Positions 17 to 64,000 of a DNA stretch of 64,000 nt are shown here, piece by piece. The stretch is from Candidatus Gottesmanbacteria bacterium. Its GTDB lineage: Bacteria; Patescibacteriota; Microgenomatia; UBA10105; UBA927. Both the position numbers and the translations under genes were made by a program. The stretch's first letter is position 1. The number at the start of each line of letters is the position of its first letter. The notes below the pieces were generated by a model, which saw nothing but the letters and a program-made list of their open reading frames with translations, was not told the DNA's origin and did not search any database. The stretch lies in assembly GCA_963809665.1 (NCBI GenBank), contig CAWEKC010000003.1, forward strand, positions 25,277 through 89,276, written 5' to 3'.

Positions 17-1963
17 ATGGCTGCCACATACACCGTCAAACAGGTCGCAGAAATACTAGGATATAGCACAAATAGTATTTATACCTTCCTCAAAGAAAAA
101 CGCATCAAAGGCGTCCGGGTAGGCAAAGGCAGATTCCGCATTCCGCAAAGCGAATTGAACCGGTTACTTCTTATTTCCAAGAGTCAGACAAGCATGGCGA
201 AAGAGCAGACAGGTATGGTTCCCATAACCGGGACTATTATATCGCCGGATATGGGAGGTATTCCGTTACACGAACAACACCACGTCTTTTCTCTTTCGGT
301 ATTCGGCACAACAAGGACGGTGACTGCGAGCATTTTCGATTGGTTTCTTGGTACTGGGGCGCTGGTTTCCGGCGTTGCCCTGTTCCTTTTCAACCAGACG
401 TTCGACGTTGTACACGTCCAATCGGTGGCGCCGATCATGCCGGCAGTTCGTATTCTCCTCATCGGCGGTGGCATCGGAATACTCCTGACGAATCTTACCT
501 ATACCGCCCACCAAACATGGCACAGAGTATTCCATGGGATCCTGGGTATTGCCGGTATCATCATGACGGTACTTTTAGTATTGACCAGGGATATAGATGC
601 GGTTGCTATCTATGGAACATTAACAGGTGTGATTATCCTTACTATGTTTGTCCGATTGGGGAAAGTTATCCCGTTTGCCCTCTATCTTACGCTCTTGGCG
701 GCAACCGCACCTATTGTCGCGTTTATAGCACCAACTGATTTTCATGTGCTGGCCTTAACCAACGCACTGAATACGACACCTGAAATCACTACCATTATAT
801 TATCGATCCTGTGTATTGTATTCATTCTTCTCCTTTGGGTAGGTCTGTACTGGAAGAAGGTGCTGTTCTGGTTAAGCACCTATGCTGCGGCAACGGCATA
901 TTTTGCATTGGCGTTTTGGTGTGCGTACGACCAATTCTGGTCCCGTGCGTTCTTTTTCATGATTATCGCACTCACATGTATGTATCTGCCGTCGTGGAAT
1001 GACCTTATCACGACCCGGAATAAAAAAGCGCACACAGTAGCCATCGGTGTTTTTTTAGCGATCATAATGGTAGCCCTTACGGGTGTCACGATTGTTCACG
1101 TGACCCAGCTTAATGTTATCGCGACTGTTGAGCGGGAAAATACTCAGAAGGTAGATTATGCCCGTGCGTCCATGGAAGGCGATCTTCGGAGTGTTAAATC
1201 CACAATATCGACAGCATCCATCAATCCGGATTTGGTGACCGCAACTGAGGAAAAAAACACGACATCGCTTATGGATTTGAGCCGCATCATGTTCGACAGC
1301 AGCAACAGTATTCAGAGGCTAGTCATATTGGACAAAGACGGTCAGGTGCTCTTTATGTATCCATTGGGTCAGTCTGGTGAGACGGATTTATCGTTCCGCG
1401 ATTACTTTATCCAGGCGAGGGACACCGGCAGGCTTTATGTGTCCGATATTTTTGAAACGCGCGTTGATAATACGCACCGGAAAGTCGTTACAATCGCTTC
1501 TCCGATTGTTGACGCGGACAAGCAGTTCGTCGGAGTCCTGGCCGCATCCCTTGATTTGGAAGCTATCAGCGCCCGCCTGCAAAAAATTGCAGTGGTTGAC
1601 CGCGGAGAATACATCATTGTACTTGATAGACATGGGAAACGGATCATACATCCCGTATCGTCTCTCCTCGGTACGGATACGGAACCCACTGACCCGACAC
1701 TGTTAGCGTTTCAGGGAAAAACAGGAGTGGGAGAAGGCGATACGTACGATGGAATTCATTCCCTGATTGCGTATACTCCCATCAGCTCTCTTCAATGGGC
1801 GATTGCACTTAAAGCTCCATATAACAATATTTATGCGCTTTCCAGTACGGCGAACATTGTCGTTGCAGGATTTATCATCGTCAGTATCATAATTGCCGCT
1901 ATCATATTCCAACTGGACTACATATATAAATATAAGCAGAATAATGACGGAGGTGGTCCATGA
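17..1963 (+). CDS. Membrane-bound one-component regulator: N-terminal Xis/MerR-type HTH, polytopic membrane region, C-terminal extracytoplasmic Cache-like sensor domain
   Basis: 648-aa ORF. N-terminus ([40 protein letters not shown]) resembles excisionase-family HTH_17, like the small Xis protein at 23105-23305. About 8 hydrophobic helices follow. The C-terminal 250 aa ([38 protein letters not shown]...[12 protein letters not shown]) is Cache/dCache-like. The stop overlaps the start of the next gene (ATGA). Confidence 0.6.
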
Positions 1964-4900
1964 TGTCCCGTGAAATCACGGGAGATCAGACGGTTCCGCC
2001 CTCGGGCGGTCTTGTCATTTTATTGGGACGCGTAAAATTAGCCTCAAAAACCGGAATTTACAAGTTTTTACAAGTATTCACCAAAAAAAACACCTGTTTG
2101 TACTACTTTTCCCAAACCCAGGGTGGCGGAATTTCGATCTTTGCACTTCTATTCATGACTATCCTACTCTTTCTGGGTATTACGGTTATGAAGAGCGGGA
2201 TCATTATTCCTCAACAATTAACGTCGCTTGATATCAATACCTCACAGCAAACCGGTATTGCACCGATACCGGCTCTCACAGCTGACGTGTTCTCTAAAAG
2301 CGATTTTTCCGGACCGTTTCTTGTAGTGGTTACACGGGCCGACGGGTCGTATTCCTATGCAATAGTGGATCAGGGAATACTTGTGGACGGTCATTTTGAG
2401 GGAGATGTACGTCTGCATTATCCGAACGGCGATTATGGTGTCATGGTGGAGCAACCCGATAAGTCCGTTCTGTTTATGACCAAGAAAGGCGGACGAGAAA
2501 CGGTGATCCTTACTTATCCGCTCATTGCAGCAATAAGATTGCCGGATGAGTCTATGGTGCCGGTAGAATTCCGTGATGCAACAATCCGCGACGGGGCATT
2601 GGTCGGCGATTTTCTTTTTTTTGAATACGCTGATAGAAAGCAAGTAACGGGCTACGTGACGCCGCGCGGGCAAAAATCGCAATTATCGGCGACACCGACA
2701 CTGACATCGCCTGATCCGGCCACATTACTGACACAGCGAGAAATACTGAAGCTCTATTTTGATATAGTCGGAAACGGTGATGTCAACATATTGGGTGTTA
2801 CAACAGAGAATAACGACACCAACGGATCGGTTAGTATTCAGCCGGGCGGTTTGGTATCAAGCGTCATTGTGGCAGAGCGCAATATCGATGAAGGCACCGT
2901 CCGACTCGTTTCGCCGCAGGGAGTCGCTGTAGGGGCCAACGTAAATATATCACAGCTTCTTCCCCAACTTACCGGTGTCGGAGGTTCATCTTTAACACAA
3001 TTAATCACGCAACTCATTAATCAGGGCGGGAATATTTCGGGAATCGGTGGTGCTGGCGCTACCGGACCGACAGGCCCCGCGGGATCAAGCGGTACAAACG
3101 GTGCGTCTATTACCGGTCCGACGGGGGCTACCGGTGCCGGTGCAACAGGTGCAACAGGAATTCAGGGTGATTCCGGAAGTCAGGGACCGGTCGGTGCAAC
3201 CGGAGAAGCAGGGTCCGGTGGCAGCGGCGGACCAACGGGTAGTACCGGAGCCACGGGCAACGCAGGAGCAAACGGTGATGCAGGCCCAACAGGATCAACG
3301 GGAGCAACTGGAAATGTAGGTTCAAATGGTATAAGCGGTCCAACGGGCGCCACAGGAATGTATGGCCCGACTGGTTCAACAGGAGGAACCGGTTCAGCGG
3401 GTGCAAATGGTCCTACAGGATCCACCGGAGCAACCGGATCAGCTGGTGCGGTTGGACCAACCGGTAGTACCGGGAATATGGGATCTGCAGGAGCATCTGG
3501 TCCAACCGGATCAACGGGCGCGACAGGGAATATCGGGGTTATTGGTGAAACAGGACCGACAGGAACAATAGGTCCTACCGGATTTGCCGGAGGAGCAGGT
3601 CCAACCGGAAGTACTGGTAATAACGGGCCAACAGGATCTACCGGACCAACCGGAAATGTAGGAGCTAATGGAGAAGTTGGTCCAACCGGAGCAATGGGTG
3701 TCACCGGAACTGCCGGAGGTGCGGGTCCTACAGGTCCAACCGGCATAGTCGGAGCCGTAGGAGCTAATGGTCCTACTGGTTCAACCGGAACCAATGGGAG
3801 TATCGGAGAACAAGGATCAACCGGCGCAACCGGAATTATCGGAACACAAGGTAGTTCCGGTCCTACCGGGTCTACAGGTGCAACTGGATTTAATGGTTCA
3901 TCCGGTCCCACAGGATCAACAGGAGCAACGGGAACACAAGGAGCTGTTGGGAGTTCCGGACCTACCGGTTCTACCGGAGCAGGTGGAGCACAAGGCAATT
4001 CTGGACCAACCGGAAGTACCGGAGCCACAGGAACACAGGGAGCTGTAGGTTCTTCCGGACCTACCGGATCAACGGGAGCTACGGGAACAGGCGGAACTCA
4101 AGGGTCATCCGGACCGACAGGTTCAACAGGTGCAACTGGAAGTGCAGGGGCCAATGGTCCCACGGGTTCAACAGGTGCAACTGGAATTGAAGGGGCCAAT
4201 GGTCCCACGGGTTCAACGGGGGCTACCGGAACGGGCGGAGCTAATGGTGCTTCCGGACCTACGGGACCTACTGGCGCAGGCGGAGCACAAGGATCCTCCG
4301 GACCGACAGGTGCTTCCGGTGCAACTGGAATAGGTGGACTACAAGGTTCATCCGGTCCCACAGGATCAACAGGAGCGACAGGAACACAAGGAGCTGTAGG
4401 TAGTTCCGGACCTACTGGGTCAACCGGTGCCACAGGTGGAGGTGGAGCTAACGGTCCTACGGGTTCATCAGGATCTACAGGTTCAACAGGAGCTAATGGT
4501 CCCACAGGTTCAACAGGAGCTACGGGTTCAGCAGGAGCAAACGGCCCTACGGGTTCATCCGGATCTACAGGTTCAACAGGAGCTAATGGTCCTACAGGTT
4601 CAACAGGAGCCACAGGAACGCAAGGAGCTGTAGGTAGTTCCGGACCTACGGGATCAACGGGAGCAGGAGGACTACAGGGAGAATCCGGTCCTACAGGCGC
4701 AACAGGAGCTACAGGAACACAGGGAGCTGTAGGTTCTTCCGGACCTACCGGATCAACGGGAGCAGGCGGAACCCAAGGTTCCTCCGGTCCTACGGGTTCA
4801 ACAGGGGCCACGGGAAATCAGGGATCTATAGGTTCTTTCGGACCCACCGGGAGTACCGGCGCCGAAGGATTACAAGGGTCCTCCGGTCCTACGGGTTCAA

Positions 4901-7900
4901 CAGGGGCCACGGGAAATCAGGGATCTGTAGGTTCTTCCGGACCCACCGGGAGTACCGGCGCCGAAGGATTACAAGGGTCCTCCGGTCCTACGGGATCAAC
5001 GGGAGCAACCGGAGGTGCAGGAGCCAATGGACCTACGGGTTCAACAGGAGTCACAGGAACACAAGGAGCTGTTGGTAGTTCCGGACCCACCGGTTCAACC
5101 GGATCTACGGGTTTAGTAGGAGCCAATGGACCAACGGGTTCAACAGGAGCAACAGGAACACAAGGAGCAAATGGAGCTTCCGGACCAACCGGTTCAACCG
5201 GAGCAGGCGGAACTCAGGGTTCCTCCGGACCTACAGGTTCAACCGGCGCAACCGGAGATGCTGGCGCCAATGGTCCCACAGGTTCAACCGGCGCAACCGG
5301 AGGTGCTGGCGCCAATGGTCCAACTGGTGCAACAGGATCTACGGGTCCAGCAGGAGCAAACGGTCCTACGGGTTCATCAGGTGCAACAGGAACACAAGGA
5401 GCTGTAGGGAGTTCCGGACCTACGGGATCAACGGGAGCAGGAGGACTACAGGGAGAATCCGGTCCAACAGGTGCAACCGGTGCCACCGGAACACAAGGAG
5501 CTGTAGGGAGTTCCGGTCCCACAGGTGCAACCGGAGCTGCAGGATTACAAGGTTCCTCCGGACCTACCGGGAGTACGGGTGCCACCGGAACACAAGGAGC
5601 TGTTGGTAGTTCCGGACCCACCGGGTCAACGGGTGCAACCGGAGGTGCTGGTGCCAATGGTCCCACAGGATCTACAGGATCTACAGGTGCAGGCGGAGCT
5701 AATGGCCCCACAGGATCTACAGGATCTACGGGTGCAGGCGGAGCTAATGGCCCCACCGGGTCAACGGGAGCTACAGGAACAGGCGGAGGTGCTGGACCTA
5801 CGGGTTCAACAGGAGTCACAGGAACACAAGGAGCTGTTGGTAGTTCCGGACCCACCGGGTCAACGGGAGCTACAGGAACAGGCGGCGCTAATGGTGCTTC
5901 CGGACCTACGGGATCTACTGGCGCAAATGGTCAAGAAGGCCCCACTGGAGCAACGGGTCCTACCGGTTCACAAGGTGGAGCTGCGGGTGCTTCCGGTCCC
6001 AGTGGTGCGACCGGTCCCACAGGAACTGCCGGAGCACAAGGTTCATCCGGACCCACCGGGAATACCGGCGCCGAAGGACTCCAAGGAGAATCCGGTCCCA
6101 CAGGTGCAACCGGAGCCACAGGAACGCAAGGATCCGTAGGTTCTTCCGGTCCCACAGGTGCAACAGGATCTGCAGGATTACAAGGATCATCCGGACCTAC
6201 CGGGTCTACAGGATCTACGGGTACGGGCGGAAGTGCTGGTCCTACTGGGAGTTCGGGCGCAACCGGAACCCAAGGATCCGTAGGTTCTTCCGGTCCCACA
6301 GGGTCAACGGGAGCAGGAGGACTACAGGGAGAATCCGGTCCTACGGGTGCAACAGGTGCAGGCGGAGCCAATGGTCCCACCGGTGCAACCGGAGCCACCG
6401 GAACCCAAGGAGCCGTTGGGAGTTCCGGTCCCACCGGGTCAACCGGCGCCGGAGGGTTGCAAGGTTCTTCAGGACCAACCGGGCAACAGGAGCAACCGGA
6501 ACCGGAGGCGCTAATGGTGCATCCGGTCCCACCGGGTCAACGGGATCTGCAGGATTACAAGGGTCATCTGGTCCGACTGGAAGTACCGGTGCAACCGGAG
6601 GTGCAGGAGCCAATGGTCCCACAGGGTCTACCGGTACAGGCGGCGCTAATGGTGCATCCGGACCAACGGGCGCAACAGGTGCAGGTGGAGCCAATGGTCC
6701 CACCGGTGCAACCGGAGCCACCGGAACCCAAGGAGCCGTTGGGAGTTCCGGTCCCACCGGGTCAACGGGATCTGCAGGATTACAAGGGTCATCTGGTCCG
6801 ACTGGAAGTACCGGTGCAACCGGAGGTGCAGGAGCCAATGGTCCCACAGGGTCAACCGGCGCCGGAGGGTTGCAAGGTTCTTCAGGACCAACCGGGTCAA
6901 CAGGAGCAACCGGAACCGGAGGCGCTGATGGGTGCATCCGGTCCCACCGGGTCAACGGGATCTGCAGGATTACAAGGGTCATCTGGTCCGACTGGAAGTA
7001 CCGGTGCAACCGGAGGTGCAGGAGCCAATGGTCCCACAGGGTCTACCGGTACAGGCGGCGCAATGGTGCATCCGGACCAACCGGGTGCAACCGGAGCCAC
7101 CGGAACCCAAGGAGCCGTTGGGAGTTCCGGTCCCACCGGGTCAACGGGATCTGCAGGATTACAAGGGTCATCTGGTCCGACTGGAAGTACCGGTGCAACC
7201 GGAGGTGCAGGAGCCAATGGTCCCACAGGGTCTACCGGCGCAGGTCAGGCGGCGCAATGGTTGCATCCGGACCAACGGGCGCAACAGGTGCAGGTGGAGC
7301 CAATGGTCCCACCGGTGCAACCGGAGCCACCGGAACCCAAGGAGCCGTTGGGAGTTCCGGTCCCACCGGGTCAACGGGATCTGCAGGATTACAAGGGTCA
7401 TCTGGTCCGACTGGAAGTACCGGTGCAACCGGAGGTGCAGGAGCCAATGGTCCCACAGGGTCAACCGGCGCCGGAGGGTTGCAAGGTTCTTCAGGACCAA
7501 CAGGCAGCACTGGAGCAACCGGAACCGAAGGAGCGTTGGGCAGTTCCGGTCCCACCGGGTCAACGGGATCTGCAGGATTACAAGGGTCATCTGGTCCGAC
7601 TGGAAGTACCGGTGCAACCGGAGGTGCAGGAGCGAATGGCCCCACAGGATCTACCGGTACAGGCGGCGCCAATGGTGCGTCTGGACCAACCGGGTCAACC
7701 GGAGCAACCGGAACCCAAGGAGCCGTTGGGAGTTCCGGTCCCACCGGGTCAACGGGATCTGCAGGATTACAAGGGTCATCTGGTCCGACTGGAAGTACCG
7801 GTGCAACCGGAGGTGCAGGAGCCAATGGTCCCACAGGGTCAACCGGCGCCGGAGGGTTGCAAGGTTCTTCAGGACCAACAGGCAGCACTGGAGCAACCGG

Positions 7901-8124
7901 AACCGGAGGCGCTAATGGTGCATCCGGTCCCACCGGGTCAACGGGATCTGCAGGATTACAAGGGTCATCCGGACCTACGGGAAGTACAGGCGCAACAGGT
8001 GCAGGAGCCAATGGTCCCACAGGGTCAACCGGCACGGAACAGGAGCAGTGGAGTCCAGGTCCCACAGGGTCAACGGGACTGCAGGATTACAAGGGTCATC
8101 TGGTCCGACTGGAAGTACCGGTGA
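1960..8124 (+). CDS. Giant collagen-like (Gly-X-Y) surface protein, N-terminal part. A 360-aa N-terminal domain with a TM/signal-anchor is followed by [10 protein letters not shown]-type triple-helix repeats, in frame from about 3050 to 6485. Downstream of 6485 the ORF continues only in a shifted frame.
   Basis: ORF from ATGATG at 1960. A hydrophobic segment ([20 protein letters not shown]) is followed by a globular region. From about nt 3050 there is an uninterrupted (G-X-Y)n run of more than 1100 triplets rich in [10 protein letters not shown]. At about 6485 a 1-nt deletion relative to sister repeats (gggcaacagg versus gggtcaacagg) moves the GXY phase to another frame. Confidence 0.6.
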
Positions 8125-9240
8125 ACCAGGTGCAGGAGCCAATGGTCCCACCGGTGCAACCGGAGCCACCGGAACCCAAGGAGCCGTTGGGAGTTCCGGT
8201 CCCACCGGGTCAACGGGATCTGCAGGATTACAAGGGTCATCTGGTCCGACTGGAAGTACCGGTGCAACCGGAGGTGCAGGAGCCAATGGTCCCACAGGGT
8301 CAACCGGCGCAACAGGTGCAGGTGGAGCCAATGGTCCCACCGGTGCAACCGGAGCCACCGGAACCCAAGGAGCCGTTGGGAGTTCCGGTCCCACCGGGTC
8401 AACGGGATCTGCAGGATTACAAGGGTCATCTGGTCCGACTGGAAGTACCGGTGCAACCGGAGGTGCAGGAGCCAATGGTCCCACAGGGTCAACCGGCGCC
8501 GGAGGGTTGCAAGGTTCTTCAGGACCAACAGGCAGCACTGGAGCAACCGGAACCGGAGGCGCTAATGGTGCATCCGGTCCCACCGGGTCAACGGGATCTG
8601 CAGGATTACAAGGGTCATCTGGTCCGACTGGAAGTACCGGTGCAACCGGAGGTGCAGGAGCCAATGGTCCCACAGGGTCAACCGGCGCAACAGGTGCAGG
8701 TGGAGCCAATGGTCCCACAGGGTCAACCGGCGCAACAGGTGCAGGTGGAGCCAATGGTCCCACAGGATCTACCGGTACAGGCGGCGCTAATGGTGCATCC
8801 GGACCAACGGGCGCAACAGGTGCAGGTGGAGCCAATGGTCCCACCGGTGCAACCGGAGCCACCGGAACCCAAGGAGCCGTTGGGAGTTCCGGTCCCACCG
8901 GGTCAACGGGATCTGCAGGATTACAAGGGTCATCTGGTCCGACTGGAAGTACCGGTGCAACCGGAGGTGCAGGAGCCAATGGTCCCACAGGGTCTACCGG
9001 CGCCGGAGGGTTGCAAGGTTCTTCAGGACCAACCGGGTCAGCACAGGAGCAACCGGAACCGGAGGCGCTAATGGTGCATCCGGTCCCACCGGGTCAACGG
9101 GATCTGCAGGATTACAAGGGTCATCTGGTCCGACTGGAAGTACCGGTGCAACCGGAGGTGCAGGAGCCAATGGTCCCACAGGGTCAACCGGCGCAACAGG
9201 TGCAGGTGGAGCCAATGGTCCCATACAGGCGGCGCTAATG
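6480..9240 (+). pseudogene. Middle segment of the collagen-like gene with at least 7 frame-disrupting indels. The GXY phase hops between frames (about 6485, 6935, 7063, 7245, 8040-8110, 9046, 9226). Either the giant gene is pseudogenized or this is a repeat-assembly artefact.
   Basis: I aligned repeat copies by eye. Differences from the consensus copy include gctgatgggtgcatcc versus gctaatggtgcatcc (+1), gcgcaatggtg versus gcgctaatggtg (-1), a 2-nt insertion at about 9046 and a 13-nt deletion at about 9226. ORFs 6870..9071 (frame 0) and 8048..9238 (frame 2) carry GXY segments. Confidence 0.5.
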
Positions 9241-11300
9241 GTGCATCCGGACCAACGGGCGCAACAGGTGCAGGTGGAGCCAATGGTCCCACCGGTGCAA
9301 CCGGAGCCACCGGAACCCAAGGAGCCGTTGGGAGTTCCGGTCCCACCGGGTCAACGGGATCTGCAGGATTACAAGGGTCATCTGGTCCGACTGGAAGTAC
9401 CGGTGCAACCGGAGGTGCAGGAGCCAATGGTCCCACAGGGTCTACCGGCGCCGGAGGGTTGCAAGGTTCTTCAGGACCAACAGGCAGCACTGGAGCAACC
9501 GGAACCGGAGGCGCTAATGGTGCATCCGGTCCCACCGGGTCAACGGGATCTGCAGGATTACAAGGGTCATCTGGTCCGACTGGAAGTACCGGTGCAACCG
9601 GAGGTGCAGGAGCCAATGGTCCCACAGGGTCAACCGGCGCAACAGGTGCAGGTGGAGCCAATGGTCCCACAGGGTCAACCGGCGCAACAGGTGCAGGTGG
9701 AGCCAATGGTCCCACAGGATCTACCGGTACAGGCGGCGCTAATGGTGCATCCGGACCAACGGGCGCAACAGGTGCAGGTGGAGCCAATGGTCCCACCGGT
9801 GCAACCGGAGCCACCGGAACCCAAGGAGCCGTTGGGAGTTCCGGTCCCACCGGGTCAACGGGATCTGCAGGATTACAAGGGTCATCTGGTCCGACTGGAA
9901 GTACCGGTGCAACCGGAGGTGCAGGAGCCAATGGTCCCACAGGATCTACCGGTACAGGCGGCGCTAATGGTGCATCCGGACCAACGGGCGCAACAGGTGC
10001 AGGTGGAGCCAATGGTCCCACCGGTGCAACCGGAGCCACCGGAACCCAAGGAGCCGTTGGGAGTTCCGGTCCCACCGGGTCAACGGGATCTGCAGGATTA
10101 CAAGGGTCATCTGGTCCGACTGGAAGTACCGGTGCAACCGGAGGTGCAGGAGCCAATGGTCCCACAGGGTCAACCGGCGCCGGAGGGTTGCAAGGTTCTT
10201 CAGGACCAACAGGCAGCACTGGAGCAACCGGAACCGGAGGCGCTAATGGTGCATCCGGTCCCACCGGGTCAACGGGATCTGCAGGATTACAAGGGTCATC
10301 TGGTCCGACTGGAAGTACCGGTGCAACCGGAGGTGCAGGAGCCAATGGTCCCACAGGGTCAACCGGCGCAACAGGTGCAGGTGGAGCCAATGGTCCCACA
10401 GGGTCAACCGGCGCAACAGGTGCAGGTGGAGCCAATGGTCCCACAGGATCTACCGGTACAGGCGGCGCTAATGGTGCATCCGGACCAACGGGCGCAACAG
10501 GTGCAGGTGGAGCCAATGGTCCCACCGGTGCAACCGGAGCCACCGGAACCCAAGGAGCCGTTGGGAGTTCCGGTCCCACCGGGTCAACGGGATCTGCAGG
10601 ATTACAAGGGTCATCTGGTCCGACTGGAAGTACCGGTGCAACCGGAGGTGCAGGAGCCAATGGTCCCACAGGATCTACCGGTACAGGCGGCGCTAATGGT
10701 GCATCCGGACCAACGGGCGCAACAGGTGCAGGTGGAGCCAATGGTCCCACCGGTGCAACCGGAGCCACCGGAACCCAAGGAGCCGTTGGGAGTTCCGGTC
10801 CCACCGGGTCAACGGGATCTGCAGGATTACAAGGGTCATCTGGTCCGACTGGAAGTACCGGTGCAACCGGAGGTGCAGGAGCCAATGGTCCCACAGGGTC
10901 AACCGGCGCCGGAGGGTTGCAAGGTTCTTCAGGACCAACAGGCAGCACTGGAGCAACCGGAACCGGAGGCGCTAATGGTGCATCCGGTCCCACCGGGTCA
11001 ACGGGATCTGCAGGATTACAAGGGTCATCTGGTCCGACTGGAAGTACCGGTGCAACCGGAGGTGCAGGAGCCAATGGTCCCACAGGGTCAACCGGCGCAA
11101 CAGGTGCAGGTGGAGCCAATGGTCCCACCGGTGCAACCGGAGCCACCGGAACCCAAGGAGCCGTTGGGAGTTCCGGTCCCACCGGGTCAACGGGATCTGC
11201 AGGATTACAAGGGTCATCCGGACCTACGGGAAGTACAGGCGCAACAGGTGCAGGCGGAGCGAATGGCCCCACAGGATCTACCGGTACCGGCGGGGCCAAT
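6480..11300 (+). repeat. Tandem array of at least 6 near-identical 729-bp units (243 codons = 81 Gly-X-Y triplets; sub-blocks of about 501 + 228 bp) inside the collagen-like gene
   Basis: Identical antisense ORF images lie at 9964 and 10693 (729 bp apart). Identical sense strings (tgcatccggaccaacgggcgcaacaggtgcaggtggagcc...) recur at 9241, 9741, 9969, 10476 and 10699. Long stretches have no stops in 2 sense frames and 1 antisense frame. Confidence 0.85.
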
Positions 11301-13142
11301 GGTGCGTCTGGACCAACCGGTGCAACAGGAGCCACCGGAAGTGCAGGAGTTAATGGTCCCACAGGGTCAACCGGCGCCACCGGAGGTGCAGGAGCCAACG
11401 GTGCATCAGGTCCTACCGGCGCAACCGGGGCTACCGGGGAAGTAGGAAATGAAGGGCAAGTCGGACGAACCGGTCCTACAGGCTCAACGGGAGCCACGGG
11501 CAATGCTGGAGCAAATGGTCCAACAGGATCTACCGGCGCAACAGGAAATGCTGGAGGAAATGGTGTTGGTGGGCCTACGGGTTCAACCGGCGCAACCGGA
11601 ACTGGCGGAGGCGCCGGTGCCGGAGGTCCGACCGGGTCCACAGGCGCAACAGGTTCCGCCGGAGGCGGAGGAGCAAATGGTCCCACGGGTTCAACGGGTG
11701 CTACTGGTGGAGGTGGAGTAAACGGTCCCACTGGCCGAACAGGAGCCACCGGAGCCACGGGCAATGCTGGAGGCGCCGGTCCCACCGGGTCCACAGGCGC
11801 AACAGGTACTGCTGGCGGCGGAGGAGCCAATGGTCCTACCGGGTCAACAGGCGCAACAGGAAATGCTGGAGGAAATGGTGTTGGTGGTCCCACAGGATCA
11901 ACAGGTGCCACCGGAACTGGCGGAGGTGCCGGTGCCGGAGGCCCGACCGGGTCCACCGGCGCTACTGGTGGAGGCGGAGCAAACGGCCCCACCGGTCGAA
12001 CAGGAGCCACCGGAGCCACAGGGGTTGCAGGTGCGAATGGTCCCAGTGGATCAACCGGCGCAACCGGTGCAGCCGGAGCGATGGGCGCCGGAGGGACTGC
12101 ACTATTAACATCAGTTGCCAACCTTATTCAACCCTACCCGGCAAATGGTCTCAGTTTTGCTTTAGGGAATACCGGCGGCGGAGATCTTACCAATGCAGCC
12201 ACTTCTTCTGCGTACATCGTCTTTTTTGCCGCAAATCAACCCGGCGGTGGTGGATCAGCAGGGGATATTTATATGGGATCTACGTTGACGCTTGGTAATA
12301 ATACGACGGGTGGAACTATTACAACTAAAGATGCAGGAGAAGCGTTAACGATAGATACCAGTACGAACGGATCTATAAGTGTCAGTACGGGGACGACAGG
12401 AAAAACAATTTCAATCGGTACGAACGCATCTGCTGCAAATACAATTGCGATTGGTTCTTCCAATGCATCAGCAACACTTGCTCTTAATGGCGGCGACGAC
12501 TGGTCGGTTTCGACAGCAGGACTTGCGGTACTTGGTGTGACGGCAAACAGTTTTACTTTTAATCCCGGATCAGGTCCTGTGTATGCAGGGACTGCCCGGC
12601 CGACACGTAAAGTGACCCTTACACCCGAATATGCCGGTGCAGTGTTGACAGGGGCAGGGACAGGAACCATGACGTCTGATTTTTGTGAACAAGGGTATAG
12701 TGCCAACATCACGGATACTAATACGGGCGCGTGTGAATCCGGGCAAGTTCACAATTATTACACATGGACATCCGCATCCGGTTCAAATACGTATAGTATA
12801 TATGTACGGTGGAGGGTACCGGACAATTTCTCTGCTACCGGTTGGACATCAGCAGGGACAATTACCAATCCGATTACAGTTTGGGCCCGACGGTCTGATT
12901 CTACTGACGGAACGGTTACCGTAACCCTGTATGATACTGCCGGTACAGCCGAAAATACTACCAGCGGGACCCAAGTGGCGGGGTCCAACAGTACGTGGAC
13001 CCAGACGTCGCTTGAAGCAACACCATTTGAAGGAACGTATACCGCCGGTGGATATATCACCCTGAAGATTGATCTCCAAGTGACTGGTACAGATACAACC
13101 ATGGTAGGTGAGATAGATATTGATTATCTGTCAACAAATTAA
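9072..13142 (+). CDS. Collagen-like protein, C-terminal part. The frame is open from 9072 and the first ATG is at 9459. About 950 GXY triplets are followed by a 345-aa beta-rich C-terminal globular domain (candidate trimerisation or receptor-binding head).
   Basis: Uninterrupted GXY from about 9240 to 12100. The C-terminal segment ([14 protein letters not shown]...[27 protein letters not shown]) is Thr/Ser/Gly-rich and beta-strand-like, reminiscent of BclA/C1q-like or phage-fibre distal domains. Stop TAA at 13140-13142. Confidence 0.65.
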
Positions 13143-13143
13143 T

Positions 13144-16100
13144 ATGAAACACACAATAACGAAGTGGCTGTGTTTCATTACAATATTCAATGTATTGTCA
13201 GGGACTTTAATGCCCGTAGCAGTTGCGCAGGAGTCAGCTTCTACGTCTGCGACATCGGATATATCAAATCCCCCGGAAGCAACACCATCTACCCTTTTGG
13301 ATCAACTTGAGGCAACAGATAGCGCATCCATAAGCGCCATAATTGACACACCGGTTAGTTCAATATCTGCGGATCTTTTGACCCCGACCCCGACACTGGA
13401 AATGCTCACCGGTCCTTCCGGGGTATTATCTCCGTCTGCATCTATGAAAGGCCCACCTCACTTCCGTGCGATGATGAGACACGCGTTTCGGGCAGGAGAA
13501 GTCCCGTCCGTCATTGTTGATGCCCTTACCATATCATCTATAAAAACAACTGTGCGGGATAGTAAAGGTACGGTTATAGACAGCACCCCTTCTATAGAAA
13601 CGTATGACGGGGGAATACGTGTGTCCGTCATCCCGAAAACGTCCATGAAACCCGGGAAATATACAATAGTTATTGAAGACACCTCGACCGGAATGACCAT
13701 TACGCAGGATTTTTTATGGGGGGTCTTGGCTTTCAATACGGATCAGGCGACATACAATCCCGGAGATACGGCAGACATTGCGCTTGCGGTGTTGGATGAT
13801 ATAGGTATGATGGTTTGTGACGCAGATGTAACCCTTACTATTCTCAGTCCGGCGAGAACAACAACAACACTTTCTACTGCGGACGGGACGATCCGTGTAA
13901 CGCCGGCGTGTACACTTCATGATTTTACCCTCAAACCCGATTACGAGACCGAATTTCAAACATCCGATGAGGGAGTCTATCAGGTTTTGTTGTCTGCAAC
14001 GACAAAAAACGGCACCAATGCGATTCAGGATTCATTTCAGGTATCATCCGATATGCCGTTTCAGGTGAAACGAATAAGTGCGACCCGTATTTATCCGCCG
14101 AAACCGTATCCGATGACTATCGATATTACCGCCAATGAAGATTTTTCAGGGATTGTGACCGAAACGGTTCCAGAAGATTTTACCATTATGCCTCTTGCCG
14201 GGGTACAGCCGTATGCCGATATGGGGGCGGCCGCTCCCGTCACGGAGCCGCAAACACCCATACTGCTGAGCATGCCGTTTGAGGGGAATTACCCGGTGAC
14301 GCTCGGGTTTGGCGACCGTATTAAGGATCCGCAGGTGAAACAACTGTACGAGCAGAATGGTTTAAAAGGTCACGACGGAGCGGATTTTGCCATGCCAATC
14401 GGTACGCAGGTATTGGCAGTTGACGCGGGGACGGTTTCCCGTATTGCGGATAATCCGTACGGGACAACGGTTGTTATTGATCACCCGTGGGGACGAAGTT
14501 ATTATGGGCATCTGAGTGTTGTGCAGGTTAAAGTTGGGGACATGGTCAAGAAAGACGCGCCCATTGCGTTATCAGGGAATACGGGTCTTACGACCGGAGC
14601 GCATTTGCATTTTGGCATGAAACTGACAACAAATGATGTGAACAACGGGTATTACGGGAAAATAGACCCGATGCCGTACTTGACCTCATCGGTGACATAT
14701 CAATCCGAAAGCAAAGGAAAACAGATTTCCTGGAATGTGGATATCAAATCCGGTGAAAAAATTCAACTCGGTTATACATTTAAAGCGCCTGAGGTCAGCC
14801 CGCGATTTTATCTGATCGGACCGCTCACGTTCCGCGCGTCAAATCCCGCGGAGCCTGCTCCTGCCGTACCTGCGGATAATCCGTTTGTCCTGGGAATCGC
14901 TTCTGCAAGCGCGGCACCTTCGGAGGCGTCCGGGTCGGCAACAGCCACACCGTCGGCCGTTCTAGCAGCGACTGCTGCTGCACCAACAAATAGTATAGTG
15001 TATCAGGAGCCGCGCCGTTGGCAGATTGCGGCGGACGCAGTCGGTTTCATTGGGAGTGTCAGTAACGTTGGCAACACCAGTGGAGGCGATGTCACACTCA
15101 CTCTCTCAGGTCTTGGGCTTCAAGAGGATGATCTTGTTATTGCTGCCTACAGTATCGCTGATGCTGACAATGTTGATATGGCTATGGCGGAGGTGGGCGG
15201 GATTGGGGGATGGACGGAGGTTGCCGACTTGTTCTCTGATGATACGTATGATGCTAATCTCGGCGTATATTACAAGGTGATGGGTGCGTCACCGGACGCA
15301 TCGGTGATATTTGATGGTGTGGGCGGTACTGACACTCAAACAGGCGCGGTAGCGATGGCTTTCCGGGGCGTGGATCCGACGACCCCGATGGACGTGGCGG
15401 CGACCACAGTCTCGGGCGCCTCGGGTCTCAACACTATGCATCCCAACCCGCCATCCATTAATCACAATAATCCCTCCGGCGTCTGGACGGTTATCGCTGG
15501 CAGCAATGTCAATGGTACCCAAGGCGCCCGAACCTTCACGTTCCCGACCGGCTACACAACAAACGCGGTTCAGCGATCCTCAAATGATACCAGTGATGGT
15601 ATTGTCGGACTGGGGTATCGGACGAATCCCTCTGATCCCGAAGATCCCGGCCAGATGACTGCCAGCGGCACCGATGGCACCGGTTACGCTTTTGCCGCCG
15701 TCACCATGGCGCTCAGGCCCGCGCCTGAAGTTCCCGGCATTGACGGGTCGCTGGGCAAAACGTCTGACGGATGGGCCGGGGCAGTACCGGTTTATGGGAC
15801 GTTAACCGGTGGGTTAAGCCAGGGCGATTATCCGTATGCCAGGGCAGAGGTAACCACCGCTGCGAGCCAAACTTTCTATACAGATATGACCTGGGATAGC
15901 GGAGACAGCCGGTTTGAAGGCACAATTTATCCCGGTTCTAATTATTGTATGGGATGCGATGATCCGACATACGGTACGTTCAGTGTGACCGTGGAGTTGG
16001 ATGATAATGCCGGTTTTTCCTCCATTGATTATTCCTCCGACGCAGCCACATTTTCAACGGTCAGAACATACAAGAGGAGTTCTATGGATAATGTAACAAA

Positions 16101-17436
16101 CACTAACTATACTGATTTCAATCCGGTTTGGAGCACTGACCACTGGAATATGTCGATAAGTGATTTTGGGTTTGCTATGCAGAGCGGCACGGGCACAAAT
16201 TTTGCCGTTGCCGTTCCTATCCATCCTGACACGTCATCCCCGAGCAATTTTACCGTAGCCTATAACGGCTCGAGTGTTTCTGCGGGTAGTGCCGAATCAA
16301 CGTCTAACGCCTGGTGGTACAACAGCACATCCCACACACTATATCTGCAATTTGCCTCGCTGACAACCACACTGGTTGATGTGGATATTACGTTTGATAC
16401 CGACACGGACCTTTTCGCTACCAGGTTCAACTGGACGTATACGGCAGACATGGGTTCCCGTCGTTACGCGAACGGCATAATCATTGCCAACCAATACCTT
16501 ACTGCTCCCATATACGGACTGCCTCAAGCTGATTGCGCCAACGACAATGAGTGTGAAGCGGCCGGCATGCAGGCGGAGACGCGCGCCCATGAAGCAGGAG
16601 GACCCGACGAGTCCACCGACTGCATGGAACGGCCCGCGGTCCACGTGGATGATACGCCCGTAGCCGACAACAGGACGCTGGGATATCGGTATGATATCAA
16701 ATGGAAACCAACAGAATGGGCGGACTGGATAACGGAACAGGACAATAATCATTTTGTCATCGTCGAAAATTCGGATGACACGGCAACGACCGGCTGGGGT
16801 CAGCAATTGGACAATGGTATTGCCGCGTTAAGAACCCAAACGTATTATGCAGGGGAAAGATATATCAAGAATGTGTACGCCTTTACCAATAATGATTCCT
16901 CATCACATAAATATCCGATGGTCTGGGAGCGCGAACAATGGCACGCAACCGACAGGCAGGCGAACGATCACGGAAGATTCCAGGGCGATACGTCGGATGT
17001 GGTCATGGAACAAAGGGTATCAATGTCAGGGTACACCTGTCCCTGGCAGACTGCGTATGACAGCGGGACATATATTAATATGGGATTGGTTTATGACAAA
17101 AACAACCTTCCGGATTATGGTATTTTTGCAGTAGAGCCCTTTTTGGCACCGGATACGGCGGAATGGCCGATCGGTATAACAAGCAGTCACGGTACCCAGA
17201 CAACCGATCAGACCGGATTTGAAAAGACCTGGAGTTCGGTGGCTCCCGATGAAACAGTGAGTTTCACTTTCTGGCACGTTCATAACGCCGAAAGTTCCTG
17301 GGCAAACATAGAGTCTGCCATGGATGCAGATTGTGCAGAACTCAATACGTCTGCTCCGTCCGGTCCCACCACCGATCAGCAGATGCGCCACGGTAAATGG
17401 TTTGACAGTGGGGTAGAGCAGGGGTTTACATTCTAG
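13144..17436 (+). CDS. Giant secreted protein (about 1430 aa) with an embedded M23/LytM peptidoglycan endopeptidase domain
   Basis: Signal peptide MKHTITKWLCFITIFNVLSGTLMPVAVAQE. M23 motifs are present: HDGADFAMPIGTQVLAVDAGTV...YGTTVVIDHP...GHLS...SGNTGLTTGAHLHFG (HxxxD...HxH). Big-like beta domains lie N-terminal, and a long Cys-containing C-terminal region has unknown function. The gene starts 2 nt after the collagen gene stop (the ORF track starts at 13120, but the ATG at 13144 follows the stop). Confidence 0.75.
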   Translation: MKHTITKWLCFITIFNVLSGTLMPVAVAQESASTSATSDISNPPEATPSTLLDQLEATDSASISAIIDTPVSSISADLLTPTPTLEMLTGPSGVLSPSASMKGPPHFRAMMRHAFRAGEVPSVIVDALTISSIKTTVRDSKGTVIDSTPSIETYDGGIRVSVIPKTSMKPGKYTIVIEDTSTGMTITQDFLWGVLAFNTDQATYNPGDTADIALAVLDDIGMMVCDADVTLTILSPARTTTTLSTADGTIRVTPACTLHDFTLKPDYETEFQTSDEGVYQVLLSATTKNGTNAIQDSFQVSSDMPFQVKRISATRIYPPKPYPMTIDITANEDFSGIVTETVPEDFTIMPLAGVQPYADMGAAAPVTEPQTPILLSMPFEGNYPVTLGFGDRIKDPQVKQLYEQNGLKGHDGADFAMPIGTQVLAVDAGTVSRIADNPYGTTVVIDHPWGRSYYGHLSVVQVKVGDMVKKDAPIALSGNTGLTTGAHLHFGMKLTTNDVNNGYYGKIDPMPYLTSSVTYQSESKGKQISWNVDIKSGEKIQLGYTFKAPEVSPRFYLIGPLTFRASNPAEPAPAVPADNPFVLGIASASAAPSEASGSATATPSAVLAATAAAPTNSIVYQEPRRWQIAADAVGFIGSVSNVGNTSGGDVTLTLSGLGLQEDDLVIAAYSIADADNVDMAMAEVGGIGGWTEVADLFSDDTYDANLGVYYKVMGASPDASVIFDGVGGTDTQTGAVAMAFRGVDPTTPMDVAATTVSGASGLNTMHPNPPSINHNNPSGVWTVIAGSNVNGTQGARTFTFPTGYTTNAVQRSSNDTSDGIVGLGYRTNPSDPEDPGQMTASGTDGTGYAFAAVTMALRPAPEVPGIDGSLGKTSDGWAGAVPVYGTLTGGLSQGDYPYARAEVTTAASQTFYTDMTWDSGDSRFEGTIYPGSNYCMGCDDPTYGTFSVTVELDDNAGFSSIDYSSDAATFSTVRTYKRSSMDNVTNTNYTDFNPVWSTDHWNMSISDFGFAMQSGTGTNFAVAVPIHPDTSSPSNFTVAYNGSSVSAGSAESTSNAWWYNSTSHTLYLQFASLTTTLVDVDITFDTDTDLFATRFNWTYTADMGSRRYANGIIIANQYLTAPIYGLPQADCANDNECEAAGMQAETRAHEAGGPDESTDCMERPAVHVDDTPVADNRTLGYRYDIKWKPTEWADWITEQDNNHFVIVENSDDTATTGWGQQLDNGIAALRTQTYYAGERYIKNVYAFTNNDSSSHKYPMVWEREQWHATDRQANDHGRFQGDTSDVVMEQRVSMSGYTCPWQTAYDSGTYINMGLVYDKNNLPDYGIFAVEPFLAPDTAEWPIGITSSHGTQTTDQTGFEKTWSSVAPDETVSFTFWHVHNAESSWANIESAMDADCAELNTSAPSGPTTDQQMRHGKWFDSGVEQGFTF

Positions 17437-35663: not shown

Positions 35664-36857
35664 TCAGGCCACCGGAGGCGTAGGCGGCGGTTGGATAAAG
35701 GGCGTGGGGGGCGTTTTTTTCTTGCGTAACAGCAGGAAGGCTGCGGCGATTGCAGCAAGGACTCCGATTACCCACCATACGAGATTTCCGAGAGGATTTT
35801 TAGAAGGCTCAAGGGCAAGCGTCGGGGTGACACTTGGCGTGGGTGTCAAGGAGACGATTGCGACGACTTCGGGTGTCGGCGTAATATTTGTATAAGCGAT
35901 AACCCGCTGGTAGTACGTTGCAGGGGTGGTTGTAGAGGGATTGATGACGATTACCCGTTTACAGTCGTTGGAAAAACCGGAAAAAACATTATTATTGTCG
36001 CGCACGCGGCATAATGCCCCCAGCGATCCGATTGTTGAATAGGTATGAGTTGTCGAAATAGATCCCGGGCTGCCGGCGTTTTTGTACACCGTATCAATCG
36101 TTCCGTCGCCGAAGGTAAATTCCGCGGCGTTGATATACCCGTCGGGGTCGATACCGGAACAGGTAAATGTTACGGAGAGCGGGGCGCCGGTGCCGGTCGT
36201 CGTATTGCTTGTGAGCGTGACACACGTGGGTGTTGTATTATTTCCTCCACCAGACTGACCGGGTGTCGGAGTCGGCGTTGGGGTTCCTGCACCGACCGTC
36301 GGCGTGGGGGTGGGTGCGGTGCCGTTACTATACGTCAGGGCAACCGAATTTGTTTGTGATGAGCAGGACGAGAGAACATTTTGGGCAGGGGAGATAGTGT
36401 AGATGTGAGTATTTGCGCAGTCGATTGAAACGGTACTGCTCCCTGAAGATTTTTTTGCTTTGAAAACAACCGTTGCATAGTTGCCGTTGCCGCTCGTGCC
36501 GATGGGTGACGATGTGTATGCATGGAGTTCAAGCACGTTATTTGCGGGGTCAGGTGCAGAACTGAAAAACGGGAAAAAATTTCCGTTTGATGCTGATACA
36601 AAATCCAGATCATTGGCCGCATACCGGATATAGACATCGCTGGTTTGTACCGAACCGGAGTCCGCATTGACACTTAATGTCAGTGTCACCGTGTTATTTT
36701 GTACTACGACGGCGCTCGTCGGGCTGAACAGCAAACTTGGAGCCGCCTGCGCTTGTGCCGCAGGAAAAGCTAATGCAAGAAAACCGACTGTGACTGCAGT
36801 GAGGAATCGGAGCAGTTTAGTTTTCATCGTAGCGCGTCTCCAGTGTTTGAAAAACAA
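35664..36857 (-). CDS. Cell-surface protein with a PKD-like domain and a C-terminal TM anchor
   Basis: Signal peptide; FTCSGIDPDGYINAAEFTFGDGT (PKD); C-terminal LVWWVIGVLAAIAAAFLLLRKKK. Confidence 0.5.
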   Translation of the reverse strand: MFFKHWRRATMKTKLLRFLTAVTVGFLALAFPAAQAQAAPSLLFSPTSAVVVQNNTVTLTLSVNADSGSVQTSDVYIRYAANDLDFVSASNGNFFPFFSSAPDPANNVLELHAYTSSPIGTSGNGNYATVVFKAKKSSGSSTVSIDCANTHIYTISPAQNVLSSCSSQTNSVALTYSNGTAPTPTPTVGAGTPTPTPTPGQSGGGNNTTPTCVTLTSNTTTGTGAPLSVTFTCSGIDPDGYINAAEFTFGDGTIDTVYKNAGSPGSISTTHTYSTIGSLGALCRVRDNNNVFSGFSNDCKRVIVINPSTTTPATYYQRVIAYTNITPTPEVVAIVSLTPTPSVTPTLALEPSKNPLGNLVWWVIGVLAAIAAAFLLLRKKKTPPTPFIQPPPTPPVA

Positions 36858-38307
36858 GGCTTAGATCCAACGAATCGACTTTGCCGCTGTAATTAACATC
36901 TGCTGTTAAGAGGTCCTGCGGTGTTTGTTGTGAACTGGGTTTGTTGAAAAGGTCCGTGATGAGCTTGATATCGTCGGTATTCACTTTTCCGTCATGATTC
37001 AGGTCGCCGGGTGGCAGCGGCCTGCCGGTAAAGTCGAACGTATCTGATTGCGTTGCTATGTATTCCGTGTCATTACACGGTTCTGTCTGTCCTGATGGTC
37101 GGCAGAAAACAATCTGTGAATGTTTCTCGCCTTTAATAAGTACACGGTACTCCGTAGGCGCGGGAAGGGGATTTGTAACTGTCGCGGTTGCCGTATATAC
37201 ACCGTTTCCGAGCGGGTTTAGCACTAATGGTTTATCAAGCTGAAGTACTGTACCGTTCTTGAGTTTAAGCTTCACTGTTATTGTTGCTCCCTGGGCCTCT
37301 GCTCCGTTTACTCCCATGAGTTTTACCCTAAATGTCATTATTCTCGGCAGAAGTATCGGGGTGGGAGTCGGTGTCGGTGTCAGATATTGTGAAACAGTAG
37401 GATAGGGAGGCCGTGTCGGTGTCGGCGTCATATAGTATGACGGAGTAGGATATCTGGTCGGTGACGGAGAGATCGGGATGCAGCGGTAATTCTGACAAAT
37501 ACCGGGTTGAGCAAGTACAGACAGGACTTCGGACAGCGGATAACTAGTACCGGCAGGTGAGGTCGGGCAGGAGAAAGTGGTAAAAGTGCAGCTCGATCCG
37601 TTTGGTGAACAACTCACTCCTGAAGGCGTCGGATAATAGGACGGAGTGGGATACCGTGTCGGTGTCGGCGTGAGCCATGTTTCACAACGCCCGCTGATAC
37701 AGACTCCACCGCGTGTTGTGCATTTATCGATACAATTCGGTGTACCCGGCGGGCATGCCGGCGCGCACGTATCGGTACACGCGGAACCCTCTGTTTTTCC
37801 CGAACAAACATTCGTACCGGGTGTGGGTGTAATCCATGTTTCACATTTGCCGCTTATACAGAATCCGCTGCGTGTCGTACATTGATCCGTACACACTTTT
37901 ACATCCGGCGGGCATGCTCTCGCACAGGTATCGGTACACGCAGAACCCTCTGTTTTTCCCGAACAGACATTCGTACCGGGCGTGGGTGTAGCCATACTGC
38001 AGTTGGGGATAAAAGGTTTACCGTTTGATATCCAGGCGTTGTATCCGGTTAGCTCTTCTTCCGTCAGGGGGACAAGTACAGCAGCACATCCTTGGGCGTT
38101 CGGGTTCCCTTTGCAGCCATCAGGCCAGTTAAGCTTACCGTCAAACTCGGTAACGCGGTTCCAGCAGATTTCAGCAGTTGTTGTCGCAGCGCGTTTTCGA
38201 AGTTCAATCCGCTGCGTCGCGACTGCCCATATGAAGATAGGAAGTCCTACAATCAAAAAGACTGCAATAAGTAATTTGATCCATGGAATCCGTTTGGTTC
38301 CGATCAT
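36817..38307 (-). CDS. Membrane-anchored surface protein with two duplicated 8-Cys modules, Pro/Thr/Tyr linkers and a C-terminal type-I dockerin
   Basis: N-terminal TM. Duplicated module TPTPGTNVCSGKTEGSACTDTCA(R/P)ACPP...C(I)SG(K/R)CETW. Dockerin repeats DLNHDGKVNTDDIKLITDLF and DVNYSGKVDSLDLSLVFQTL. Confidence 0.65.
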   Translation of the reverse strand: MIGTKRIPWIKLLIAVFLIVGLPIFIWAVATQRIELRKRAATTTAEICWNRVTEFDGKLNWPDGCKGNPNAQGCAAVLVPLTEEELTGYNAWISNGKPFIPNCSMATPTPGTNVCSGKTEGSACTDTCARACPPDVKVCTDQCTTRSGFCISGKCETWITPTPGTNVCSGKTEGSACTDTCAPACPPGTPNCIDKCTTRGGVCISGRCETWLTPTPTRYPTPSYYPTPSGVSCSPNGSSCTFTTFSCPTSPAGTSYPLSEVLSVLAQPGICQNYRCIPISPSPTRYPTPSYYMTPTPTRPPYPTVSQYLTPTPTPTPILLPRIMTFRVKLMGVNGAEAQGATITVKLKLKNGTVLQLDKPLVLNPLGNGVYTATATVTNPLPAPTEYRVLIKGEKHSQIVFCRPSGQTEPCNDTEYIATQSDTFDFTGRPLPPGDLNHDGKVNTDDIKLITDLFNKPSSQQTPQDLLTADVNYSGKVDSLDLSLVFQTLETRYDEN

Positions 38308-63657: not shown

Positions 63658-63743
63658 GGCCTCATTTTGCCTCGTTCTTTGACACTCAAATGGTGGTAGG
63701 AATTTTAATTAATGTAAGCAGTAACATGTCTTACGTTAATTCT

Positions 63744-64000
63744 TTTTGAGAGTTTGATCCTGGCTCAGGATAAACGCTGGCGGCGTGCCTTAAGCATGCA
63801 AGTCGTACGGAGATTGTGCATAGCACTAAGATAATTAGTGTTTGCTCTCCATAACTTGTTATGCCAAGCACATAATGTCAGTCATTCATATGTATTTTTT
63901 GGCGTAACGAGTGGAGCAAATGATTCTAATTATTTTCGTGCTATGCATGAAATCAGTGGCGGACGGGTGAGTATAAGCAAGGAACGTACCCTTTATTGTG
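63744..64000 (+). rRNA. rrs: 16S rRNA, 5' partial (continues beyond the window), with an expanded V1 (helix 6) region
   Basis: Contains GAGAGTTTGATCCTGGCTCAG...GCAAGTCG...CAGTGGCGGACGGGTGAGTA. About 150 nt lie between GCAAGTCG and AGTGGCGGACGGGTGAG, against about 40 nt typically. Confidence 0.9.

Follow-up and report, generated by a model that had tools for sequence, protein, structure and literature searches.

Among the collagen-like fibers described from bacteria, BclA of Bacillus and Clostridioides combines a short N-terminal attachment part (a 38-aa domain bound to BxpB), a GPT-rich Gly-X-Y stalk and a C-terminal globular domain (134 aa, C1q/TNF-like); its stalk repeats vary in number, which determines how long the filament is, and the C-terminal domain promotes trimerization (PMC10470788). 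In Pcl7 of the obligate parasite Pasteuria, a spore-surface protein that is likewise collagen-like, a C-terminal globular domain mediates specific host attachment and is sufficient for it (PMC10987987). Gly-X-Y triple-helix stalks are also displayed on the bacterial surface by streptococcal Scl1 and Scl2 and by Legionella Lcl. Bacteria of the Candidate Phyla Radiation (CPR, or Patescibacteria) are ultra-small and mostly uncultured, and those in cultivation grow attached to other cells. Beyond type IV pili and a few Saccharibacteria adhesins, little is known of the means by which they locate and retain their hosts (PMC10633639, PMC12206443), and cultivated CPR epibionts require multiple protein adhesins (PMC10633639). 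Here we analyze a 64,000-nt stretch of DNA (the window) from a Candidatus Gottesmanbacteria bacterium (GenBank assembly GCA_963809665.1, contig CAWEKC010000003.1, positions 25,277 to 89,276 of the forward strand), in which positions 1960-13142 hold a real and unusually long collagen-like surface-fiber gene. New features of this locus are its CPR-specific end domains, one of them without a solved-fold match, the extreme length of its stalk, and a conserved cassette of sensor, fiber and peptidase genes. In the literature on CPR, Patescibacteria and Gottesmanbacteria, we found no description of collagen-like fibers or of fibers sharing the N-terminal domain (N-domain) described below.

An initial annotation of the window had proposed a three-part locus at these coordinates, and this layout was confirmed on the + strand, with the following parts:

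1960..3045 (+): N-terminal part of the fiber protein, 362 aa, comprising a possible cytoplasmic leader, a transmembrane (TM) helix, the β-rich N-domain and a linker, helical, that reaches to the first Gly-X-Y triplet
3046..6488 (+): stalk block 1, Gly-X-Y, ~1,145 aa, in the frame of the N-domain, with more diverged repeat units; matches Pfam Collagen
6489..9223 (+): frame-disrupted Gly-X-Y block of the stalk, still Gly-X-Y-coding according to register tracking and alignment to clean paralogous units
9224..12095 (+): last Gly-X-Y block of the stalk, ~955 aa, in the frame of the C-terminal domain and holding a repeated 729-nt super-unit
12096..12512 (+): neck rich in T, S, G and N, ~139 aa, between collagen and head; poorly modeled as a monomer
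12513..13142 (+): C-terminal β-jelly-roll head, ~209 aa plus stop, from a structural model

Against Pfam Collagen (PF01391), window positions 3046-6480 scored 435.8 bits (E=9e-134; cut-off 27.2), which places the stalk in the collagen class. The coding strand is + because both end domains have homologs on that strand; minus-strand open reading frames (ORFs) such as 9068-12121 (1017 aa, with 'PVAPVGP' repeats) were considered as genes and rejected as the antisense shadow of Gly-X-Y coding. Altogether, the Gly-X-Y coding sequence extends over ~9 kb (3046-12095) and encodes ~2,998 residues, or ~1,000 triplets, so that the figure of roughly 3000 triplets first given for it was a threefold overstatement. 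The ~9 kb of Gly-X-Y coding itself was borne out, while its description as uninterrupted was not, given three natural in-frame register breaks (at ~3108, ~3139 and ~5977) and six frame changes. Glycine accounts for 37% of stalk residues, and 978 triplets lie in runs of at least four, with GPT (188), GST and GAT the commonest. X positions are mostly occupied by A, S and P, and Thr is found at 483 of the 978 Y positions (49%). The stretch has a GC content of 0.58-0.65, compared to 0.47 in its flanks, and the 729-nt super-unit of its 3′ block is repeated at 99.7% identity without a gap. The break at ~5977 ('GSQGGAAGA') is also kept in an orthologous locus (L002, introduced below) although the neighboring repeats differ; this conserved interruption may serve the fiber as a kink or hinge.

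The collagen helix rises 0.286 nm per residue, and the predicted triple-helix length is therefore ~0.86 µm (2,998 x 0.286 nm), given the array length as assembled, which agrees with the earlier estimate of a fiber on the order of a micrometer. CPR cells measure a few hundred nanometers; if the array length is right, the fiber would be longer than the cell that produces it. The stalk is far longer than those of BclA, Scl and Pcl, at least about 10 times the length of BclA's, and Pcl proteins as a whole are a few hundred residues long.

The same architecture was found intact in relatives. An orthologous locus on a 100-kb Joint Genome Institute (JGI) contig, L002, carries it complete in one ORF (5771-11071, 1766 aa, or ~1,716 aa from the probable Met), comprising a TM segment, the N-domain (35% identity to that of the window), 1,038 Gly-X-Y residues and the C-terminal part, flanked by the same neighbors as in the window. 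Two further intact proteins, P0072 (1364 aa) and P0054 (1640 aa), combine the N-domain, collagen and the same C-terminal domain. The presence of one intact ORF in each of these three cases supports the three-part architecture as a single gene; the earlier description of one 11 kb gene thus holds for L002, P0072 and P0054 and fails for the window as assembled, where the gene is frameshifted. Length polymorphism across related CPR genomes, which the initial annotation had suggested looking for, is present, with stalks of 486-1,038 Gly-X-Y residues in relatives vs ~3,000 in the window. For L002, the JGI gene call covers only the last 356 aa of the 1,766-aa ORF and adds spurious antisense ORFs, and the contigs of two other relatives (L001, 1-2088; L017, 1-1154) end inside Gly-X-Y repeats. 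In practical terms, automated gene calling and short-read assembly systematically overlook such fiber genes or cut them short.

The closest genome is that of Candidatus Gottesmanbacteria RIFOXYB1_FULL_47_11, in which the C-terminal domain has 87% amino acid identity and the syntenic flanks have ~70% nucleotide identity, supporting the CPR-like host that had been proposed from the window. A search with the C-terminal part returned 48 proteins from metagenomes or metagenome-assembled genomes (MAGs), and the few source names among them were Patescibacteria, Woesebacteria or simply 'bacterium'. Scanning GTDB with the C-terminal domain yielded 69 loci (L004-L072), whose records name WWE3, Saccharibacteria, Woesebacteria, Magasanikbacteria, Peribacteria or Gottesmanbacteria, or say no more than Patescibacteria or 'bacterium'; about 19 of the MAGs bearing the domain are labeled Pseudomonadales, Gammaproteobacteria or Burkholderiales, and these labels look like taxonomic misassignments. 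In the GTDB loci, the domain always forms the extreme C-terminus of a large ORF; these ORFs measure from 600 to over 3,500 aa, are mostly non-collagenous and are in many cases truncated by contig ends.

In the window, no single ORF covers the fiber: ORF 1960-8124 runs out of Gly register from ~6489, and only ORF 9459-13142 includes the C-terminal domain. Tracking of the 9-nt Gly periodicity placed six net frame changes at ~6489, 6931, 7243, 8084, 9039 and 9224, with a dense cluster of insertions and deletions (indels) at 7990-8140. Compared to clean paralogous units, the disrupted block shows single-base insertions and deletions (for instance, AATGGTGCA appears as GATGGGTGCA or AATGGTTGCA), one 2-nt insertion and one 13-nt deletion (~9215). 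Marker spacings are 189, 225 and 315 nt in the clean 3′ block, each a multiple of 9, and 190, 230, 131, 141, 191 and 257 nt in the disrupted block, which are not multiples of 3. The indels all fall within a central 2.8 kb of the array, the portion of the stalk most distant from unique anchors, while the N-domain, the C-terminal domain and 6.3 kb of flanking Gly-X-Y sequence are open and in register. Elsewhere in the window, MreB (56040-57094, +) is split into two overlapping ORFs with the break at ~56385-56400: in a G run at ~56392, the sequence has GGGG where GGGGG is needed to read ...VVIGIPSG-VTEVERRAV..., a homopolymer-type frameshift that is evidence of indel errors in the assembly. Short-read assemblies of relatives (L001, L017) stop exactly in the Gly-X-Y region, and a noisy long-read contig (L003) has frameshifts all along, including in the neighboring sensor gene.

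The N-terminal part was expected to be about 360 aa with a TM segment or signal-anchor, and we found 362 aa (1960-3045) with one hydrophobic helix at approximately residues 57-77 (2128-2190). The ATG at 1960 is preceded by a GGAGGT Shine-Dalgarno sequence, and the segment ahead of the helix holds 7 K/R vs 2 D/E residues, so that an N-in/C-out orientation is expected under the positive-inside rule. Downstream lie the β-rich domain (~2230-2770) and the helical linker to the first Gly-X-Y triplet. At 1996-2009 (+), 33 nt past the upstream stop and inside the putative 55-aa leader, we noted a GC-rich hairpin, CCGCCCTCGGGCGG, that runs into a T-rich stretch; the peptide that this region would encode is also conserved in L003. 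Judged from its sequence, the hairpin may be a terminator or attenuator, and the true start of the fiber may lie further downstream, at TTG 2098. Searches of Pfam, NCBIfam and PHROGs gave no match for either end domain. The N-terminal domain of ~280 aa has no match among solved structures, and its profile, searched against PDB sequences, hits collagens only, via the Gly-X-Y tail of the profile.

Members of the N-domain family were gathered by exhaustive profile search, which gave 64 cluster representatives (31 at E < 1e-30), compared to the 1-2 proteins returned by word-indexed searches. Full-length members range from 938 to 3,062 aa with the N-domain at the N-terminus in all, and consist of a short basic leader, a TM helix, the N-domain, a Gly-X-Y run of 0-639 residues and T/S/G-rich fiber repeats. 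The window protein has the TM helix, the ~200-aa β-rich N-domain and the fiber-type repeats that define the family. At their C-terminal ends the members vary: P0054 and P0072 share the same domain resembling carbohydrate-binding modules (CBMs), other members finish in additional conserved domains that have PT-rich tails, and P0071 ends in Peptidase_S74, the 'chaperone of endosialidase'. The S74 intramolecular chaperone is a hallmark of trimeric fibers. Because the TM-proximal N-terminus is invariant whereas the C-terminal ends differ, these sequences follow the pattern of a constant base near the cell, combined with interchangeable shafts and tips. The window fiber is thus part of a wider modular family of giant fibers, on which we found no paper. 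P0071 was also checked as a second N-domain fiber gene in locus L073, which proved false.

Directly ahead of the TM helix, several members (P0051, P0052, P0059, P0060, P0100 and L002, from 5918 onward) carry a conserved Gly-Phe-x-Pro/x-hydrophobic motif, in forms such as RGFTPLF, SGFIPIF, RGFVPVL and HGFTQIM; the window copy (2119-2145) reads GGG-ISIF after the 55-aa leader. A class III type IV prepilin signal, which this motif resembles, was rejected for it, as Glu+5 is missing and no Pfam N_methyl match was obtained in the four motif-bearing members scanned from the N-terminus.

At the other end, the Thr/Ser/Gly-rich β domain estimated at about 345 aa is 348 aa long (12096-13139; stop codon 13140-13142). 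An AlphaFold2 model built from a 49-sequence alignment had a mean predicted local distance difference test score (pLDDT) of 74.8, and its last ~210 aa formed a β-sandwich at pLDDT 80-93, a jelly roll that superposes on CBMs and so resembles them at the level of fold. The first ~140 residues, the neck, were modeled poorly as a monomer (pLDDT 46-67); 'TIxIGT'-like repeats recur in relatives, and the neck may be a trimeric β-structure. Those most alike in fold to the head are CBM61, CBM4, CBM36, CBM16 and CBM6/35, together with the jelly-roll binders MAM, the Fbs1 SBD and Cry domain III, at 8-16% identity, and no sequence-profile match to Pfam CBMs or PDB chains was obtained. Structure prediction did not uphold the suggestion of a BclA/C1q-like head, the fold being CBM-like and not C1q-like. 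Two Cys residues of the head are invariant within the close subfamily, a pair that fits an extracytoplasmic location. The C-terminus has neither an LPXTG motif nor a hydrophobic tail.

Compared with the described systems, the window fiber shares with BclA the order of attachment part, GPT-rich stalk and globular C-terminal domain, as well as the Thr-rich composition of the collagen region, which by analogy may be O-glycosylated. It differs in its TM anchor and ~280-aa domain and in its CBM-like head, and its bearer, unlike those of BclA, forms no spores; by inspection, the exosporium-targeting motif (LVGPTLPPIPP type, PMC10987987) is absent from the 362-aa N-terminal part. Pasteuria Pcl proteins offer a functional parallel to the attachment role proposed for an epibiotic or parasitic CPR cell, while their terminal domains have no sequence relation to those of the window and they lack its combination of a TM anchor with ~3,000 Gly-X-Y residues. 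Membership in the Scl1/Scl2 and Lcl families was rejected, as the Gly-X-Y region scored under every NCBIfam cut-off (Scl2, 264.8 bits vs 325; Lcl NF046116, 245 vs 500; Scl1, 212.7 vs 400) and a C-terminal LPXTG is absent; the polarity of Scl proteins is also opposite, with a C-terminal anchor and an N-terminal variable head, whereas the window protein is anchored N-terminally. Like phage tail fibers and tailspikes, the family pairs a modular shaft with an exchangeable C-terminal tip, and its paralog P0071 has the S74 chaperone. Foldseek searches with the C-terminal part returned weak matches to phage tail-fiber and collagen-repeat proteins, with viral structural matches at TM-scores of at most 0.3. 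A phage origin was rejected in view of the missing PHROG matches of both end parts, the TM anchor and the chromosomal housekeeping neighbors; the window is a segment of bacterial chromosome that includes ribosomal proteins L1 and L11, NusG, MreB, PBP2, topoisomerase I, four tRNAs and the start of a 16S rRNA gene. The fiber would work like those of the BclA and Pcl type and follows the modular logic of phage tail fibers, and it is a member of none of these families.

Two genes adjoin the fiber gene closely on its strand:

17..1963 (+): HTH_17-dCache gene, 648 aa, matching Pfam HTH_17 (E=1.2e-9) and dCache_1 (E=2.3e-24)
13144..17436 (+): M23 metallopeptidase gene with an MG2-like domain, 1,430 aa, matching Pfam Peptidase_M23 (E=2.9e-23)

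The upstream gene ends in a stop codon that overlaps the fiber start (ATGA). Its product carries HTH_17 at the N-terminus, a long run of hydrophobic sequence, read as multi-pass by inspection of the orthologous translation, and a dCache_1 sensor domain. An HTH_17-dCache_1 gene lies directly upstream of the N-domain fiber gene in all seven loci with a visible upstream side: the window, L002, L003, L073, L074, ERZ1426827 and L076 (dCache only in the last). ERZ1426827 encodes P0078, a non-collagen N-domain member of 3,062 aa with the same sensor gene upstream. On the other side, the M23 gene begins 1 nt beyond the fiber stop, and the N-terminus of its product resembles a signal peptide (MKHTITKWLCFITIFNVLSGTLMPVAVA|QE). 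Its MG2 match (E=1.7e-6) is under the Pfam cut-off, and its NCBIfam and PHROG matches are peptidoglycan endopeptidases and endolysins. An M23 gene is found 3′ of the fiber gene in five loci (the window, L001, L002, L017 and L074) and is absent from that position in L073, L075 and L076. These peptidases share an extreme C-terminus, '...QMRHG(K/N/A)(W/F)F..G.E..F(T/S)F' (window, 17380-17436; L001, ~4490-4546; L002, ~13750-13805; L017, ~3520-3573), whose conservation may mark a sorting or anchoring signal. Glycosyltransferase genes occur near the orthologous loci L002 and L003.

On balance, we lean toward reading the locus as one that encodes a trimeric surface fiber of the collagen-like kind, anchored in the membrane of a Gottesmanbacteria-like CPR bacterium, with a glycan-binding head and a function as long-reach adhesin or tether. 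The Gly-X-Y sequence and the S74 chaperone of the paralog P0071 suggest that the fiber is a trimer. Three chains would be anchored via their N-terminal TM helices, N-terminus in, and each helix would be followed by the compact β-rich domain of the CPR-specific family, forming the base of the fiber. The C-terminal head and neck would nucleate trimerization, and the ~1,000 triplets would then zip into a triple helix. As the protein is made without hydroxyproline, its Thr-rich Y positions may be O-glycosylated, which would stabilize the helix as in BclA. The head would bind a glycan on a host cell or another surface, and the fiber may be expressed together with the secreted peptidoglycan hydrolase, possibly under the adjacent Cache sensor/regulator. 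Taken from the predicted topology, the glycan-binding type of tip and the neighboring secreted M23 peptidase, a role in host attachment is plausible. The link to a sensor-regulator gene in all seven checkable loci provides concrete candidates for host recognition in Microgenomates.

Several observations weigh against this interpretation. At the ends of the protein, the start is uncertain for the first 46-55 residues, with the alternative TTG at 2098, the likeness of the head to CBMs is at the level of fold only, and the distal position of the C-terminus is itself inferred. The same protein could instead have another role or orientation, either as an envelope, spacer or 'nap' component comparable to the hair layer formed by BclA, or with its C-terminal jelly roll anchored to the cell's own wall polysaccharide and the N-domain distal. 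The C-terminal domain recurs as a conserved element in very different giant proteins, which is usual for wall-anchoring modules; some family members (P0012, L002) have cleavable-looking signal peptides, and CBM-like folds also serve as cell-wall-binding domains. Yet within the N-domain family it is the N-terminus that is invariant and TM-proximal and the C-terminal ends that vary between S74 chaperone, PT-rich tails and CBM-like domains, and in the known trimeric fibers BclA and Pcl7 the C-terminal globular domain is distal or adhesive; we therefore give such another role or orientation only a small chance of being right.

As for the frame breaks, the window sequence as assembled does not translate into one protein, and it has to be asked whether the gene is dead, misassembled in length or merely misread. 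We consider it quite likely that the six breaks are consensus errors of the assembly within near-identical repeats and not biology, because the window contains the homopolymer frameshift in MreB and because relatives with the same architecture and neighbors have it in one intact ORF. A true pseudogene, inactivated in this lineage via slippage and indels in the repeat array and producing only fragments, if any, would equally present the six net frame changes and the closely packed indels at 7990-8140; several indels lie outside homopolymers, including the 13-nt deletion, so that real decay or a mixture of strains is possible, and the other ~25 window ORFs scanned against Pfam look intact except MreB, which speaks against a generally poor assembly. 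The most perfectly repeated block (9224-11400) is also clean, unlike what would be predicted if repeats simply could not be polished. Decay is nevertheless unlikely in our view, given that the indels are bunched in 2.8 kb and leave both end domains and 6.3 kb of Gly-X-Y sequence open and in register, that the clean parts are without stop codons or missense decay, that at least one classic homopolymer error is present in the window, and that the orthologs are intact. It is also conceivable that the gene is real and that the assembler expanded or rearranged its ~9 kb array, in which case the actual stalk would be nearer the 0.5-1 k residues of relatives. The disrupted block reads as a mosaic whose units share 85-97% identity with those of 9224-11400, the intact relatives carry no more than 486-1,038 Gly-X-Y residues, and the noisy junctions at 7990-8140 resemble poor consensus. 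However, the unit order in 6427-9224 (225-189-189-225-189-189-189...) is unlike the 189-315-225 super-unit of the clean block, and the disrupted block is therefore no simple duplicate; moreover, the first 3.4 kb of Gly-X-Y sequence is diverged, unique and alone longer than the array of any relative, which makes an artifact of size improbable. With the frame breaks probably technical, we retain the long collagen-like fiber gene as our preferred interpretation of the locus.

A bolder idea, which we rate as a long shot, is that the HTH_17-dCache sensor, the N-domain fiber and the secreted M23 peptidase form a CPR-specific module for contact sensing and attack: the micrometer-long collagen tether, through its exchangeable glycan-binding tip, would catch a host several cell diameters away, the base domain with its novel fold would relay engagement at the membrane to the Cache regulator, and the regulator would activate the hydrolase and further attachment functions. 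In a related variant, the G-F-x-P motif may be a prepilin-type signal lacking Glu5, and type IV pili would then carry the fibers as their tip subunits.

Further into the window, we noted an ORF at 35664-36857 (-) with cohesin and PKD domains, both weak and the cohesin match just under its Pfam cut-off, and an overlapping neighbor at 36817-38307 (-) with a C-terminal type I dockerin domain. In a CPR genome, the two suggest a cohesin and dockerin that pair in surface assembly; alternatively, a frameshift may have divided a single gene. At the far end, the 5′ end of the 16S rRNA gene occupies 63742-64000 (+) and runs past the end of the window.

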